From: Desulfomonilia bacterium
Lineage (GTDB): Bacteria; Desulfobacterota; Desulfomonilia; UBA1062
Length of the DNA: 64,000 nt
Reading direction: 5' to 3'
Assembly (NCBI GenBank): GCA_963664325.2
Contig: CAXXDQ010000003.1
Location: forward strand, 352,001-416,000
Part shown: positions 46,507 through 52,527 of the stretch, in pieces
Position numbering within the stretch: position 1 is the first letter of the stretch
Layout: the number at the start of each line of letters is the position of its first letter
Made by a program: the position numbers and the translations under genes
The notes under the pieces: generated by a model
What the model saw: only the letters and a program-made list of their open reading frames with translations
The model's database searches: none
What the model was told of the DNA's origin: nothing

Positions 46507-47499
46507 ATGTCCGATGATATAAGGCCGAAAAAGGATTTCTGGGACATCATACAGGCGCTTGGTCCGGCAATCATTGCCGCCACTGTGGCCATAGTCGGTA
46601 CCATGTACAACCATCAGCAGGCGCAGATAGCAAAGGCTTCCGAAATGCGCGAAGTCTATACGAAGATAATGGCCGAGCGCGAAAGTTCGGACAACAACAT
46701 CCGGGCGACCATGTTCGGCATGCTCTTTAACGCCATGTTCCAGAAAGTGGGCGGTTTGAAGGGAGAGCCCACAGATGCGCAGGCTATAAAGCAGCAGGTC
46801 ATGTTTCTCGACCTTTTAAGCCGCAATTTCGATACGATCGATATAAAGCCCTTGTTTGAAGACCTCGACAATGAGATGACAAAAAAGGTTTATGACGAAA
46901 AATATCCTGCTGATTTCAGAGGGGAGATGTTCATCATGCGGGCCGACCTGAGACGCATAGGAAAGAATCTTTCCATCAAGCAGCTCAATGCCCTGGCCTC
47001 CCTTGCGGGCAGCGATGTGAGACGCGTCGTTATCATGCAGATGAATGACGGCACCATGCAGGCTATTCCGGATGAACCCCCTGAGGGCAGGACCGATGAC
47101 TTTCCTGTCGAGATCAAGCCCGAAGTTCTGCACGACGGGGTTATCGACCTGACGCTCGATTATAAAAAAAGCAAGGCCGCGGACCAGGGCTTCAAGGCGC
47201 CAAGCTTCTACATAACCTTTTACGACCTGCCTTATATAGACAACAGCGTTCTTGATAAGGATATGAGGGTGGCGCTTGTGCTGACCAAATTTTTCAATGT
47301 CCAGGACCTCGACAAATTCAGGGGCAAACTGGACAGGAGATTGCTCAAGGACTATCAGGATATGAAAGACGGCGGCATAGCAAAATATGCCGAGGTACGT
47401 CTGATCAAATTCCCGGCAAAATATACCGGCCACCGCGACAGGCCTTACTTGCAGGAGATTCTGCAGGACCTGGTCGATGATAACAAGCTGAAAAAATAA
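46507..47499 (+). CDS. Hypothetical protein with an N-terminal membrane anchor
   Basis: KKDFWDIIQ followed by a TM helix; 330-aa ORF with consistent codon usage. Confidence 0.7.
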   Translation: MSDDIRPKKDFWDIIQALGPAIIAATVAIVGTMYNHQQAQIAKASEMREVYTKIMAERESSDNNIRATMFGMLFNAMFQKVGGLKGEPTDAQAIKQQVMFLDLLSRNFDTIDIKPLFEDLDNEMTKKVYDEKYPADFRGEMFIMRADLRRIGKNLSIKQLNALASLAGSDVRRVVIMQMNDGTMQAIPDEPPEGRTDDFPVEIKPEVLHDGVIDLTLDYKKSKAADQGFKAPSFYITFYDLPYIDNSVLDKDMRVALVLTKFFNVQDLDKFRGKLDRRLLKDYQDMKDGGIAKYAEVRLIKFPAKYTGHRDRPYLQEILQDLVDDNKLKK

Positions 47500-47534: not shown

Positions 47535-48029
47535 TTAGATAAACCTCTCGAAACGGTCCGCTTTAGCCTTGCAGATGGGGCAGACCCCCGGCGGGTTGTC
47601 GCGTGCGCAAAGGTAACCGCAGACCCTGCACCGCCAGACGGGGTAGGGGAGTTCTTTATTTAAAAGCCCGGATGCATTCACTGTTTTAGCCTCTTTCTTA
47701 CCGGCAGGCCTTCTGTCGGGTATTGAGGAAAGCTTTTTGGCGCCCGTTGCGATTTCTTCCGTCACATAAAGGGCGCAGTAGCAGGCACCGTAATCCGTCA
47801 GGTCGGCGTCCCTGTAGTCGCAGGGGCAGATCATGTCCCTGTCTTCTTCGATGGTGCCCGAGGCAAGCCTGCAGGGGCAGGCCTGATAGCCGTAGCGGGC
47901 TTCATTTTCGAGGAGGCCTTCAGCAATGACCGTGGTAAAACCGTCATCAGGATTTATCCGGTAACCGCCTGCCAGTGCGTCGGTCTTCAGCTTCGCCAGA
48001 AGACCGGAGGCCTTTGAAGCATCACTCAT
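47535..48029 (-). CDS. Ferredoxin:thioredoxin reductase catalytic-type subunit fused to a C-terminal rubredoxin (ferredoxin:disulfide reductase-like)
   Basis: CPCR, CPC, CYC cluster motifs; WRCRVCGY...CPIC rubredoxin. Confidence 0.92.
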   Translation of the reverse strand: MSDASKASGLLAKLKTDALAGGYRINPDDGFTTVIAEGLLENEARYGYQACPCRLASGTIEEDRDMICPCDYRDADLTDYGACYCALYVTEEIATGAKKLSSIPDRRPAGKKEAKTVNASGLLNKELPYPVWRCRVCGYLCARDNPPGVCPICKAKADRFERFI

Positions 48030-48304: not shown

Positions 48305-48320
48305 ATTTCCTCCTCTTCTA

Positions 48321-48445
48321 TACAGGGCGTCATAACTTTGCATACCTTTGTCGCTTCCTTGGCTCGTCATTGCGGCATACGCTAAAAGTATGCCTCATTC
48401 CTTGCCATCGTCGCTCCTCGGTCTGCTTTGTTCTTACACCCTGTA
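48321..48445. mobile_element. MITE/REP-like element A (125 bp) with TA-bounded terminal inverted repeats
   Basis: TACAGGGCGTCATAAC ... GTTCTTACACCCTGTA (13/16 IR); internal GGCATAC-n7-GTATGCC hairpin. Confidence 0.65.
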
Positions 48446-48645
48446 TTTATAATCGCTAGTGACTTATTATAAAACAATTTGCTTGAGAAAACGATCTCCA
48501 TCTGATGTCAGGGTTGCCTGTATTAATAAAACCCCTTCCTGGAATAGTCAGAAATTTGATTCCATGACATTTTGTCAATTGTTGGAAGCTGACCTTTTAA
48601 CTTCCGCAAAGTGGTCCAAATTCCAGAAGGTTGAAGTTGTCTCAC

Positions 48646-51600
48646 TCATTCAAAATTGTCTCTATAAAAATTAAGATTTCGTTCGTCAAGTTCTTGGCTA
48701 AATCGTTGAAATACTTCTCTGGCGTTTTCCTTCATTTTAAAATCCCGACAGCAAAGAAAAAATCTGAATACAGGCGCTTGGCTATGTCGGTCAAAATGAT
48801 ATTCGGGTTGTGCAATGAATTCAAAGAACCGCTGTACACACTTCTCATTCTTTCCCTGACGGTTCCAGATTGCTAGAAGTTCTGACATTGCATAAATGTC
48901 GAGCGGGTCTATTTCTAAAGACTCTTCTGCTTTTTCAGCGGCTTTATCGAGCTTATTCTGTCTCTGGTAAATCTTCGCCAGTTCAGTGCGGGGATGCAGT
49001 TGTTTATTGTCGATTTTCAAACTTTCCAACAAAAGAGCTTCAGCTTTATCGAGCTTATTCTGTCTCTGGTAAATCTTCGCCAGTTCAGTGCGGGGATGCA
49101 GTTGTTTATTGTCGATTTTCAAACTTTCCAACAAAAGAGCTTCAGCTTTATCGAGCTTATTCTGTTTCTGATAAATCTTTGCCAGCTCTGTGCGGGCTTG
49201 CAAGTTTTTCTTGTCTATATCCAAAAGCTTTTGCAAAACTACTTCAGCTTTATCGAGCTTATTCTGTTTCTGATAAATCTTCGCCAGCTCTGTGCGGGGA
49301 TGCAGTTGTTTATCGTCGATTTTCAAACTTTCCAACAAAAGAGCTTCAGCTTTATCGAGCTTATTCTGTTTCTGATAAATCTTCGACAGCTCTGTACGGG
49401 GATGCAGTTGTTTATCGTCGATTTTCAAACTTTCCAACAAAAGAGCTTCAGCTTTATCGAGCTTATTCTGTTTCTGATAAATCTTCGACAGCTCTGTACG
49501 GGGATGCAGTTGTTTATCGTCGATTTTCAAACTTTCCAACAAAAGAGCTTCAGCTTTATCGAGCTTATTCTGTTTCTGATAAATCTTCGCCAGCTCAGTG
49601 CGTGAATTTAAGTCATCAATTTTAATATCGAGCACTTCTAGCAATACAACTTCAGCATCAGTCAATTTACCTTGCCTCTGGTAAATCTTCGCCAGCTCAG
49701 TGCGTGAATTTAAGTCATCAATTTTAATATCGAGCACTTCTAGCAATACAACTTCAGCATCAGTCAATTTACCTTGTCTCTGATAAATCTTCGACAGCTC
49801 AGTGCGGGCTTGCAAGTTTTTCTTGTCTATTTCTAAAAGCTTTTGCAAAACGGCTTCAGCTTTATCGAGCATATTCTGTTTCTGATAAATCTTCGCCAGC
49901 TCAGTGCGTGAATTTAAGTCATCAATTTTAATATCGAGCACTTCTAGCAATACAACTTCAGCATCAGTCAATTTACCTTGTCTCTGATAAATCTTCGACA
50001 GCTCTGTGCGGGCTTGCAAGTCTTTTTGATCTATTTCCAAAAGCTTTTGCAAAACGGCTTCAGCTTTATCGAGCATATTCTGTTTCTGGTAAATCTTTGC
50101 CAGCTCTGTGCGGGCTTGCAAGTCTTTTTGATCTATTTCCAAAAGCTTTTGCAAAACGGCTTCAGCTTTATCGAGCTTATTCTGTTTCTGGTAAATCTTT
50201 GCCAGCTCAGTTCGGGCTTGCAAGTTTTTCTTGTCTATTTCCAAAAGCTTTTGCAAAACGGCTTCAGCTTTATCGAGCTTATTCTGTTTCTGGTAAATCT
50301 TTGCCAGCTCAGTGCGGGCTTGCAAGTTTTTCTTGTCTATTTCCAAAAGCTTTTGCAAAACGGCTTCAGCTTTATCGAGCTTATTCTGTTTCTGATAAAT
50401 CTTCGCCAGTTCTGTGCGTGTATGCAAATTATCAGGCACTTCTTGGATAAATAATTCTAATAAAGATACAGCTTCATCATCTTTGTCCTGAGATAGAAGC
50501 AACCAAAATTTGGCAAGATGAAGAGTTGCATACAGTTTTTGGGAGAGTTTAACTTTATCGACAAGGTAGCTGTTAAATAGATAATCAAAAATGGATTGAT
50601 AATTAACATGGTAATCTTCAATCAAGTAGTTCTTCTTAGTTCCAAAGATATTCACCAGCGCTTGAGAGTGCAATAAATCACGGAAATCAGTATGCTCGCA
50701 ACATTCCATTAACAGTTCAGTCTTTTCTAAATTGTGGTGCTCACGGAAATATACTTCTGAAACTATTTCATGTTTAGTCCTTAACAATATATTCTTTCGA
50801 CCTGAAACATCACGTCTTTCGTCTACAACTACGGGCTCGTATTCCAATCCACGGAATTTTTCTAGAAAGATTCTCTGCTGCACTTCATCAGCGTGTAAGA
50901 TTTTTGACAAAAGTGAAAACGGCATTTTGACGCCAAATAAATAAAAAAGCGCTATATATTTGTAGCCACCTTGGAAAGACGGAATATCTATGGTTAGCTT
51001 ACGATAATCATCCCAGTCGAAGTCAAAATCGATTTTCCGCTTTTTTTTGAGTTCTAACAATATGGTATATGTGGCGTTGACATAAGCAAGCCGTTCATTA
51101 AGACCGATTTCTCGTAATGTGGTTGTATCGTCGTCAGCAATTCCCAAAAGCTCAAAAAGCTTATTGTATACTTGTTGGCGCTGTTTGCGTGAATTCCTGA
51201 CAATGATAGGATCGTGTTCTTCTTCACCATGCAGATATGTCATACACCCATTCTTCTGCATGGCATGGTAACGGTGCCCTCGTTCTGCAATCAAAATGTT
51301 TATTTGCTCACAGTAATCAGGGATGAGCCTTAGGAGTAATCCCAATGCCTCTTCATCCTGTGCCGGGTTGTCAATACATAGCAGAACCTTGCCTGTAGCA
51401 TTACAGTATTTTATTTGGGATAGAACATTTTCAAGATCACTCCTATTAAGATTTGCTTCAAAATTAAGCATATAGACGTTCTGCCCGCTCAATGACAATT
51501 CCACGGCTAAACGATGCAAGATCGTAGTCTTGCCACTCCCACCATTCCCCAGAATCCAAAACGTCCTGCTGGAAGTATACTTTTTAAGTTTCTGAAGTGC

Positions 51601-52245
51601 ATTTTCCACAACATCGGTATTTCGAATGTCCATTTTGTTGCAGACGACTTTGAATACAACATCATCCCGGTCGTTAATTCTATAATATTCCAGTGCTAAC
51701 TTTTTACGTCTATCTGGATCGTCAATAAGTGCTTTTTGGATATCGTCAATCGTAATTTTTCTGAAACCAGGAGTATGTTTGATAGGGCATTGGGGAAAGA
51801 AAATGGGTATCAACGTTTCAGCATAATCCCAAATTTTTTCGTTTATCGTATCCCATCCCCAGTATTCTACAATAGTTTCTATAGTAGATATAGATTTGGC
51901 TTTTTGTTGGAGGTGAGTGTCATTCTTAAAAGTGGACGCAAAAATAAACCGCTTTGGACGAGTAGTGAGGTCTTTTGTCTTTCCAAATTCCTCCACCATT
52001 TCAGTAGTCAGAACTTCTCGAAGGTTTTTTTCACTTTCATATCGCAAATCTTTAAGTTTGCACTGAAATGTTATATCGGAAACAGTAGGAGAGTATCCGT
52101 CAATACCGTGCTGATTCTGACCTCTTCTGCCAAACTGTTCTATGCCGGGATCTTCATAAACCAGCCGCAAAATGTCGCGAACTAGTTTTTCAAATGTGTC
52201 TGCATCAATTAAAGGTGGCAGTTGATAAGTCATGGTTTCTTCCAA
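48646..52245 (-). CDS. Mrr-like PD-(D/E)xK nuclease + STAND-type P-loop ATPase + TPR array (Avs/NLR-like putative antiphage protein)
   Basis: N-terminal FEKLV..GRRGQNQHGIDG..FQCK; Walker A GNGGSGKTT; Walker B LLCIDN; 15 x 34-aa TPRs; AT-rich relative to flanks; ATG at 52233 is an alternative start. Confidence 0.8.
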   Translation of the reverse strand: MEETMTYQLPPLIDADTFEKLVRDILRLVYEDPGIEQFGRRGQNQHGIDGYSPTVSDITFQCKLKDLRYESEKNLREVLTTEMVEEFGKTKDLTTRPKRFIFASTFKNDTHLQQKAKSISTIETIVEYWGWDTINEKIWDYAETLIPIFFPQCPIKHTPGFRKITIDDIQKALIDDPDRRKKLALEYYRINDRDDVVFKVVCNKMDIRNTDVVENALQKLKKYTSSRTFWILGNGGSGKTTILHRLAVELSLSGQNVYMLNFEANLNRSDLENVLSQIKYCNATGKVLLCIDNPAQDEEALGLLLRLIPDYCEQINILIAERGHRYHAMQKNGCMTYLHGEEEHDPIIVRNSRKQRQQVYNKLFELLGIADDDTTTLREIGLNERLAYVNATYTILLELKKKRKIDFDFDWDDYRKLTIDIPSFQGGYKYIALFYLFGVKMPFSLLSKILHADEVQQRIFLEKFRGLEYEPVVVDERRDVSGRKNILLRTKHEIVSEVYFREHHNLEKTELLMECCEHTDFRDLLHSQALVNIFGTKKNYLIEDYHVNYQSIFDYLFNSYLVDKVKLSQKLYATLHLAKFWLLLSQDKDDEAVSLLELFIQEVPDNLHTRTELAKIYQKQNKLDKAEAVLQKLLEIDKKNLQARTELAKIYQKQNKLDKAEAVLQKLLEIDKKNLQARTELAKIYQKQNKLDKAEAVLQKLLEIDQKDLQARTELAKIYQKQNMLDKAEAVLQKLLEIDQKDLQARTELSKIYQRQGKLTDAEVVLLEVLDIKIDDLNSRTELAKIYQKQNMLDKAEAVLQKLLEIDKKNLQARTELSKIYQRQGKLTDAEVVLLEVLDIKIDDLNSRTELAKIYQRQGKLTDAEVVLLEVLDIKIDDLNSRTELAKIYQKQNKLDKAEALLLESLKIDDKQLHPRTELSKIYQKQNKLDKAEALLLESLKIDDKQLHPRTELSKIYQKQNKLDKAEALLLESLKIDDKQLHPRTELAKIYQKQNKLDKAEVVLQKLLDIDKKNLQARTELAKIYQKQNKLDKAEALLLESLKIDNKQLHPRTELAKIYQRQNKLDKAEALLLESLKIDNKQLHPRTELAKIYQRQNKLDKAAEKAEESLEIDPLDIYAMSELLAIWNRQGKNEKCVQRFFEFIAQPEYHFDRHSQAPVFRFFLCCRDFKMKENAREVFQRFSQELDERNLNFYRDNFE
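48898..50427 (-). repeat. Intragenic tandem array of 15 x 102-bp TPR-coding repeats
   Basis: 1530 bp = 15 x 102; RTEL(A/S)KIYQ core recurs every 34 aa; near-identical DNA copies of three module types. Confidence 0.95.
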
Positions 52246-52527
52246 TTATATTTTTTAGATGCCCAACAAGTTATTCTAAAGTTTCTGTATATCTTAGAAA
52301 TCCAAGGAATTCGTGAAGTTTACTACTATGACAAGGTATTTCTTTTGTTGTTTCACCACAGGCCAACCAAAATCCAATGATTCAATCAATCACAGGATAT
52401 TTCATACATTTAATATTTTAACAGGTTTGTTGCAAACCTTAAATTTTTAACTTTCCGTATGTCATATCGATTTTAATGTTATTTCAAGTTCGAAGGACCT
52501 CACATGCAAGCAATCCTATAAGCATTA

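Follow-up and report, generated by a model that had tools for sequence, protein, structure and literature searches.

Antiviral STAND (Avs) proteins share a tripartite layout, in which an N-terminal effector, a NTPase of the signal transduction ATPases with numerous domains (STAND) and a C-terminal sensor resembling tetratricopeptide repeats (TPRs) follow one another in a single polypeptide. The effector of Avs4 is an Mrr-like nuclease. A recent preprint distinguished 589 STAND clades, 198 of them associated with defence, and characterised Avs7-21 (Lee et al. 2026, 10.64898/2026.01.04.697583), and at least 90 Avs families are mentioned in the abstract of a further preprint (10.64898/2026.08.25.746987). 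Restriction endonuclease-fold effectors, including an Mrr-like clade and a previously unreported clade, have been reported on such systems (Kaur et al. 2020, PMC7159879). Furthermore, highly conserved repeats have been described in the NOD-like receptors (NLRs) of fungi and noted in those of bacteria (PMC4986451; 10.1101/2020.01.06.895854), with high internal conservation defined as at least 85% identity across a stretch of 100 or more amino acids (aa) inside the repeat domain (Dyrka et al. 2014, PMC4986451). Here, a gene is described within 64,000 nucleotides of a Desulfomonilia bacterium (assembly GCA_963664325.2, contig CAXXDQ010000003.1, positions 352,001 to 416,000 of the forward strand; this whole stretch is referred to as the window). 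Its 1195-aa product is predicted to join an Mrr-type nuclease domain, a STAND NTPase and a long array of nearly identical TPRs. By analogy with characterised STAND receptors, an Avs-like defence function with nuclease output is held to be moderately probable, with the protein being a horizontally acquired, single-gene NLR/Avs-like conflict protein that would most likely act against phages.

The N-terminal domain incorporates the motif GRRGQNQHGIDG...FQCKLK at aa 35-61 of the 1195-aa protein. Across three alignments (42, 41 and 53 sequences) the residues F14, E15, G35, G38, Q41, G43, D45, Q57, K59 and W127 are invariant or at least 90% conserved, and E15, D45, Q57 and K59 are the candidate catalytic residues. 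An AlphaFold2 (AF2) model of this N-domain was built on 41 sequences (alignment A2, comprising the window's own N-domain and 40 relatives), with a predicted local distance difference test (pLDDT) value of 91.6 and a predicted template modelling (pTM) score of 0.85. It contains a helix at residues 11-25, short strands at 31-32 and 46-47, a strand at 54-59, a helix at 68-88 and a strand at 95-100, followed by a helix-strand-helix succession. The alpha-beta-beta-beta-alpha-beta core of PD-(D/E)xK nucleases can be recognised in this model, with E15 in the first helix, D45 in the second strand and Q57-x-K59 in the third. Foldseek comparison against the Protein Data Bank (PDB) returned the Avs4 chain 8dgf_A as top match (E 6.9e-3, prob 0.99, 150 columns, 18% identity), followed by EcoO109I, BstEII, MUS81-EME1, SgrAI, Bse634I, Card1, FokI and XisH. 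Pfam family Mrr_cat was matched at E <= 1 by 21/41 members of A2 (best 1.9e-5) and Mrr_cat_2 by 5/41, most of these E-values being weak, and the nearest protein-language-model (Atlas) clusters of the N-domain carry Mrr_cat_2 or Mrr_cat at 0.95. A two-copy complex prediction for the N-domain gave neither support nor counter-evidence. Sequence and model together lead to the conclusion that the N-domain belongs to the Mrr-type nucleases as a divergent member, its catalytic signature being intact and its nuclease activity predicted. It shares with Mrr_cat (PF04471) and Mrr_cat_2 (PF13156) a G-x-G-I-D ... Q-x-K arrangement after a helix with a conserved Glu, as well as the same core, but differs from both in that the window's own copy is undetected by either model at E <= 10, and in making up a large, almost always N-terminal subfamily of its own.

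The extent of this subfamily emerged from a full HMMER scan of 1.84 billion representative proteins, in which the N-domain was found in 926 protein clusters (50% identity) at E <= 1e-3, with 127 of these reaching 1e-10. The domain is nearly always N-terminal, and the carrier proteins range from 73 to 1510 aa among the 150 matches listed. Pfam analysis of 53 long N-domain proteins distinguished nSTAND3 (11), NACHT (10), NB-ARC (10) and nSTAND5 (6) partners, with TPRs in approximately nineteen. PADLOC models matched in the same 53 proteins included Dsr1 (1; E 8e-84), LmuA (2) and a SAVED/CBASS endonuclease-effector (1), along with the candidate systems PDC-M54A (3) and PDC-S12 (3). The reverse exchange is seen in an 841-aa metagenome protein (P0046), in which the nSTAND5-TPR chassis is retained (33% identity, starting at aa 147) and SMEK_N (E 2.5e-33) stands in for the nuclease, and which is, judging from this alignment, a natural effector swap. 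Since it is joined to several STAND types, and since SMEK_N substitutes for it on the same chassis, the N-domain behaves, as far as its sequence distribution indicates, like an exchangeable output module. Two further proteins of 895 aa (P0047 and P0048) have only the nuclease domain in common with the protein described here (37% identity, aa 5-164), together with approximately 730 aa lacking a Pfam family above the curated cut-off.

An NTP-dependent restriction-like enzyme could also be envisaged, in which the Mrr-type domain itself would read foreign (e.g. modified) DNA and the NTPase and TPRs would serve as regulator and scaffold. Such an enzyme would fit the matches of N-domain relatives to Mrr_cat, which is the catalytic domain family of restriction endonucleases, and the annotated restriction endonuclease adjoining a plasmid-borne relative. 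The swapping of the N-domain among several STAND types and its replacement by SMEK_N are, however, what is expected of an output module, no methylase or specificity gene is adjacent, and the NTPase is a STAND switch by both Pfam and fold rather than a translocase or McrB-type GTPase, so that a restriction-like enzyme appears decidedly unlikely.

The NTPase was classified in the Pfam family nSTAND_NTPase5 (PF25199; aa 206-327), scoring 56.7 bits with the whole protein and 59.2 bits with aa 201-578 alone where the curated cut-off is 34, and sub-threshold matches to nSTAND3, NPHP3_N, NACHT and NB-ARC also touch this module. Its Walker A and Walker B stretches (Table 1) conform to GxxxxGK[ST] and hhhhD, respectively. 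An AF2 model of aa 1-570 built from 42 sequences (mean pLDDT 87.4) is predicted to have a nucleotide-binding, helical and winged-helix architecture like that of solved STAND proteins. The best solved Foldseek matches of this model are EfAvs5 (9jap; 3e-9), human SAMD9 (9.7e-9), Apaf-1 (2e-6) and Avs4 (8dgf; 7.7e-6), followed by AAA+ unfoldases, with TM-scores that are low (0.2-0.35), as is usual for multi-domain chains. At least 90% conservation is also seen for E317-R318, which follows the strand at 311-318, and for R485-T-K-H488-E, in the part predicted to form the winged helix. By comparison with STAND motifs rather than by superposition, E317-R318 and H488 may represent the sensor-1 Arg and the nucleotide-contacting winged-helix His, respectively. 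No paper on nSTAND5, nSTAND_NTPase5 or PF25199 was found in the literature collection searched, in which a few papers use the term nSTAND, naming nSTAND1 and nSTAND2.

The C-terminal half of the protein is occupied by TPRs. Tandem Repeats Finder resolved a 102-nt period in 14.6 copies with 85% matches, and Pfam TPR_19 matches the array at E 6.6e-52, with degenerate TPRs flanking it from aa ~570 and on to aa ~1150. Positions 1-17 of the unit (RTELAKIYQKQNKLDKA) are near-invariant and variation is found in positions 18-34, which comprise the second helix and loop; by the usual TPR register, the invariant half is taken to be helix A, which presumably lines the concave groove with T, K, Q and K/R residues. 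At nucleotide level three unit types can be distinguished, interleaved in the order AAAABABBCCCACC and followed by a degenerate last unit, with 0-11 differences per 102 nt within a type and 19-42 between types; one pair of units shares its nucleotide sequence completely, and three pairs share their protein sequence. For 13/15 units the nearest unit lies within the same protein and not among 43 relatives, one further unit is tied, and the degenerate last unit is nearer to a unit of an ortholog. The longest regular TPR chain among the relatives comprises 3 to 16 units, and the lengths of the relatives mostly differ from 1195 aa by near-integer multiples of 34. The array probably evolves by gain, loss and reshuffling of whole 34-aa units, which probably tunes recognition. 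The architecture advanced in the original prediction, an effector, a STAND NTPase and TPRs in one stand-alone gene, is thus supported by the nuclease core, the nSTAND_NTPase5 and fold matches and the TPR array. Of its elements, the Mrr-type signature (GxxGQxQxGID...QCK) is present with near-invariant key residues, the P-loop ATPase motifs (GNGGSGKTT/LLCIDN) accompany a family match above cut-off, and the long, near-perfect array, with fifteen units at exact 34-aa spacing, is far beyond chance.

The self-identity of the array (97% over 102 aa; aa 606-707 versus 640-741) satisfies the definition of high internal conservation given for fungal NLRs (PMC4986451). The protein further resembles the NLRs with such repeats (PMC4986451; Dyrka et al. 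2020, 10.1101/2020.01.06.895854) in the unit-number polymorphism among its relatives and in its interleaved unit types, which suggest reshuffling. It is distinguished from the fungal NLRs by its NTPase clade, its effector and its prokaryotic host, and by a unit in which the first helix is nearly invariant and variation lies in the second helix and loop. These likenesses raise the question of whether the receptor might respond to other mobile elements, or serve self/non-self recognition or regulated cell death, with the same chassis and nuclease output and a trigger that is not of phage origin. The fungal-type conservation of the repeats (97% over 102 aa) and the whole-unit copy-number changes among relatives point in this direction, as does the origin of many relatives in Acidobacteriota metagenome genomes, where defence genes are not clearly enriched around them. 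The possibility has also been raised for bacterial NLRs by Dyrka et al. (10.1101/2020.01.06.895854). On the other hand, all bacterial STAND receptors with named triggers in the accessible text of Lee et al. (10.64898/2026.01.04.697583) sense phage proteins, and no amyloid or death-domain partner was seen adjoining the gene. A non-phage trigger is considered unlikely, though it retains some weight.

Considered in the broad sense, the sequence and models indicate a tripartite Avs layout. Similarity to Avs4 (PDB 8dgf, 'Avs4 bound to phage PhiV-1 portal') extends to the combination of a restriction-endonuclease-fold nuclease, a STAND NTPase and an alpha-helical repeat sensor in one polypeptide, and 8dgf_A is both the best solved match of the N-domain and a good match of the 570-aa model. 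By contrast, the NTPase is of the nSTAND_NTPase5 type and structurally nearer to EfAvs5, SAMD9 and Apaf-1 than to Avs4, and the sensor is built as a regular succession of 34-aa TPRs that are canonical and nearly identical to one another. Because no Avs hidden Markov model is matched, the NTPase belongs to another clade and the sensor differs, the protein would not be assigned to the Avs4 family on sequence or model, alike as the layouts are. Its effector-STAND-TPR-like layout is shared with the defence-associated clades of Lee et al., whose tree includes nSTAND clades, and it would carry an 'immune-related effector domain' as understood in that study, Mrr being a seed effector (10.64898/2026.01.04.697583). 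Among the families characterised there, none is reported in the accessible text with a near-identical tandem TPR sensor (10.64898/2026.01.04.697583). The general kind of protein is thus well known and would not surprise a specialist, and it is the unusual sensor and the under-annotated effector subfamily that set this one apart.

Several observations weigh against an Avs-like defence function, beginning with those on known systems. PADLOC includes Avs models. Using PADLOC v2.0.0, no Avs model was matched by the whole protein at E <= 1, and none by its two halves at E <= 10, in agreement with the original suggestion that it falls outside the named Avs types; the whole protein matched only two models, PrimPol in its TPR part and mad8 at its P-loop. 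Likewise, no PADLOC Avs model was matched at E <= 1e-5 among the 53 long N-domain proteins, and the uniform canonical TPR sensor differs from the solved Avs sensors. The nuclease assignment is also affected. Residues 1-200 alone matched no Pfam family and no PADLOC model at E <= 10, sequence searches of the PDB with the single N-domain sequence and with the A2 profile gave only chance-level matches, and the Foldseek E-values are weak, with none at E <= 1e-3 and unrelated non-nuclease folds mixed into the list. A PDB search with the A3 profile recovered TPR proteins and NLR NTPases, and nothing on the nuclease part. The proposed nuclease fold of the N-terminus is consequently borne out in part, by the PD-(D/E)xK core of the model and the Avs4 top match, and less so by an E-value of only 6.9e-3 in such mixed company. 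Finally, identity across phyla amounts to 55-63% in aa 1-570, a fairly high degree of conservation by the standards of defence genes.

The genomic surroundings of the relatives belong on the same side of the balance. Eleven homolog loci from named genomes were inspected with up to five open reading frames (ORFs) on each side, taking the longest non-overlapping ORFs of at least 90 aa (92 in all); three of the homologs lie at contig ends and one looks broken. Pfam assigned mostly housekeeping or miscellaneous functions to the 92 neighbours, with no family in more than 3/92, and no conserved partner gene was found among them. PADLOC matches were isolated, comprising AbiEi (1), MkoA (1), DpdF (1), mad6 (1), kinase-type PD-T4-6 (1-2) and HTH_VI (2), and given without a background rate these counts represent neither enrichment nor depletion of defence genes. 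Furthermore, searches of IMG/VR viral contigs yielded no relative at all, and those of phage records and plasmids yielded none of full length. The phage records yielded one weak match, to the N-domain only, and the plasmids twenty weak matches (20-44% of the query, 23-34% identity), fifteen of them on conjugative plasmids. One of these is a 1040-aa hypothetical protein of the Klebsiella pneumoniae plasmid NZ_AP021931.1 (L027 6983-10105), a relative in N-domain and P-loop (23.5% identity over aa 4-256) whose match is seen in 14 plasmid records from enterobacteria. Its gene has a TIGR02391-family gene and a restriction endonuclease gene on one side and the HamA/helicase pair of Hachiman on the other, with a metallophosphoesterase gene also among its neighbours. 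By its gene content this region is a defence island, but the plasmid protein is a distant relative. The expectation that homologs would occur in defence or mobile contexts finds an example in this one distant plasmid relative; the neighbours of the full-length homologs are mostly housekeeping genes.

A word-seeded search with aa 1-570 recovered 49 proteins including the window's own, of which approximately 38 relatives share 49-63% identity with the query in alignments covering no less than 86% of it. The named sources comprise Pyrinomonadaceae, Blastocatellia (Acidobacteriota), Chlorobium ferrooxidans, Pseudoalteromonas piscicida and Syntrophorhabdaceae, and the relatives from these are annotated merely as TPR proteins. 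A precomputed Pfam list gives PF27483 and PF22401 for the STAND protein and many relatives, both families being absent from the Pfam copy searched. In a Blastocatellia metagenome-assembled genome (L026 10001-11637), a homolog of aa 1-540 (53% identity) is not spanned by any ORF longer than 162 aa, and either disruption of the copy or faulty assembly is the probable explanation. The STAND gene occurs once in the genome of the bacterium described here and was found in 0/40 related genomes (3 of the same genus, 21 of the same family and 16 of the same class; completeness 77-100%). In one congener (G003) synteny on the glutaredoxin side extends to window position 48317 and resumes over 48428-48594, beyond which other small ORFs occur (L010 326-1243), one of them aspartyl-protease-like (142 aa), and in a second (G001) a 305-aa ORF without a Pfam family lies next to the DeoC side (L011 3978-4895). 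Since these congeners carry other ORFs there, the site between the glutaredoxin and DeoC genes appears to be variable in the genus, with an inserted segment of ~48595-52527. Copies of a miniature inverted-repeat transposable element (MITE)-like dispersed repeat of ~125-170 nt flank the gene (Table 1); this element matches the window five times where 0.17 matches are expected and the genome 38 times where the reversed control gives one, and three same-genus genomes hold dozens of copies. An 18-nt direct repeat around the gene was considered as a target-site duplication or att site and rejected, being the terminal inverted repeat of this element.

The GC content of the gene is 0.389 against 0.479 for the 4.3-Mb genome, which places it in the lowest 2.8% of 8556 equal-sized genomic windows. 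As read from sequence, an accessory conflict gene is consistent with the low GC, the patchy distribution among phyla, the lack of the gene in related genomes and the exchange of effectors. The same observations bear on a non-defence STAND regulator, that is, a MalT- or AfsR-like signalling or transcription protein whose nuclease-like domain merely binds DNA. STAND and TPR modules are also the layout of regulators and Pfam TPR_MalT matches the protein (E 1.8e-15), the neighbouring genes are metabolic, and non-defence STAND clades are interspersed with defence clades according to Lee et al. (10.64898/2026.01.04.697583). Against this, conservation of the catalytic-type residues E15, D45, Q57 and K59 extends over hundreds of divergent relatives, no helix-turn-helix domain was found in Pfam scans of the protein, and the gene has a low GC content, no conserved neighbour, and no counterpart in the 40 relatives that partly share its neighbouring genes. 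Such a regulator is considered very improbable.

For the Avs-like defence function that is favoured here, a course of events can be proposed by analogy with solved STAND receptors. At rest, the NTPase would keep the protein as an inactive monomer, and binding of a foreign ligand to the TPR solenoid would release this autoinhibition. Nucleotide-dependent oligomerisation could then follow, bringing the N-terminal nuclease domains together, and the assembled nucleases would cut DNA, such that the infected cell or the invader is stopped. Within this proposal, a single globular phage protein as trigger is given clearly less than an even chance, because the uniform array is unlike the solved Avs sensors. 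The sensor may instead, unlike the solved Avs sensors, not wrap one globular phage protein at all. Its 15 units would form a regular superhelix, and the groove, being uniform, basic and adjustable in length, could accommodate a ligand that is repetitive or polymeric, making the protein a 'molecular ruler' NLR, which is regarded as rather unlikely. Candidate ligands of this sort could include a nucleic acid, an acidic peptide in extended form or a polymer of phage origin such as a tube or lattice. Specificity could then be tuned by gain, loss and reshuffling of units, the first helix being near-identical between units and across phyla and the second helix and the number of units being variable.

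The ORF 48646..52245 (minus strand) is present in the window, and its AT-richness and unrelated metabolic surroundings are as originally described. Its stop end stands, and its start is likely to lie further in. The maximal ORF begins at a TTG (52245), and the ATG at 52233, four codons downstream, is preferred because it is preceded by GGAAG and yields a product of the same length as an identical database protein (P0002; 1195 aa). A promoter scan upstream of the gene gave six sites against a shuffle mean of 10.4, which is fewer than in the shuffles, and a terminator scan at the gene was not above shuffles. The neighbours are metabolic or redox genes, encoding cytochrome bd subunit II, an M28 peptidase, a ferredoxin-thioredoxin reductase fused to rubredoxin and a glutaredoxin on one flank, and a DeoC-type aldolase, an FGGY kinase, an Fe-alcohol dehydrogenase (Fe-ADH) and a radical SAM protein on the other. 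In the gene adjoining that of the glutaredoxin (47535-48029, minus strand), it is the ferredoxin-thioredoxin reductase beta chain that is fused to the rubredoxin-like domain, and a 330-aa ORF without a Pfam family (46507-47499, plus strand) lies beside it. The coordinates of the features are collected in Table 1.

Table 1. Features of the STAND gene and its flanks, in window coordinates, with the basis of each assignment
Feature	Coordinates	Strand	Basis
Whole coding sequence (likely start at ATG)	48646..52233	-	1195 aa + stop; identical 1195-aa database protein P0002
Predicted Mrr-like PD-(D/E)xK nuclease domain, aa 1-150	51784..52233	-	AF2 model, Foldseek, relatives' Mrr_cat matches, conserved residues
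Predicted STAND NTPase module, aa ~200-570 (P-loop, helical, winged-helix-like parts)	50524..51636	-	PF25199, model, Foldseek
Walker A GNGGSGKTT, aa 229-237	51523..51549	-	G229, G231, G232, G234, K235, T236 at least 90% conserved (42 sequences)
Walker B LLCIDN, aa 284-289	51367..51384	-	D288 invariant (42 sequences)
15 TPR units, exact 34-aa spacing, aa 606-1115	48889..50418	-	Repeat finding, Pfam, unit alignment
C-terminal cap past array, aa 1116-1195, conserved in relatives	48649..48888	-	Consensus; aligned with P0046
Upstream region of STAND gene, AT-rich	52234..52527	-	Composition
MITE-like dispersed repeat with 16-nt terminal inverted repeats, downstream of STAND gene and just upstream of glutaredoxin gene	48321..48445		Repeat searches
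Second copy of MITE-like repeat, between upstream region of STAND gene and DeoC stop codon	52528..52695		Repeat searches

The N-domain defines a large, mostly unannotated Mrr-like effector subfamily (926 clusters), and since current Pfam and PADLOC models miss the copy in the STAND protein, defence-gene finders may overlook its carriers. Should the gene be an active defence gene, it would add a STAND clade to the bacterial NLR-like receptors, as well as a kind of sensor without counterpart among the solved Avs complexes, in which the TPRs are near-identical and number 3 to 16 among orthologs. It would then also offer a genetically tractable system in bacteria for the way in which repeat reshuffling has been proposed to generate new specificities in fungal NLRs.

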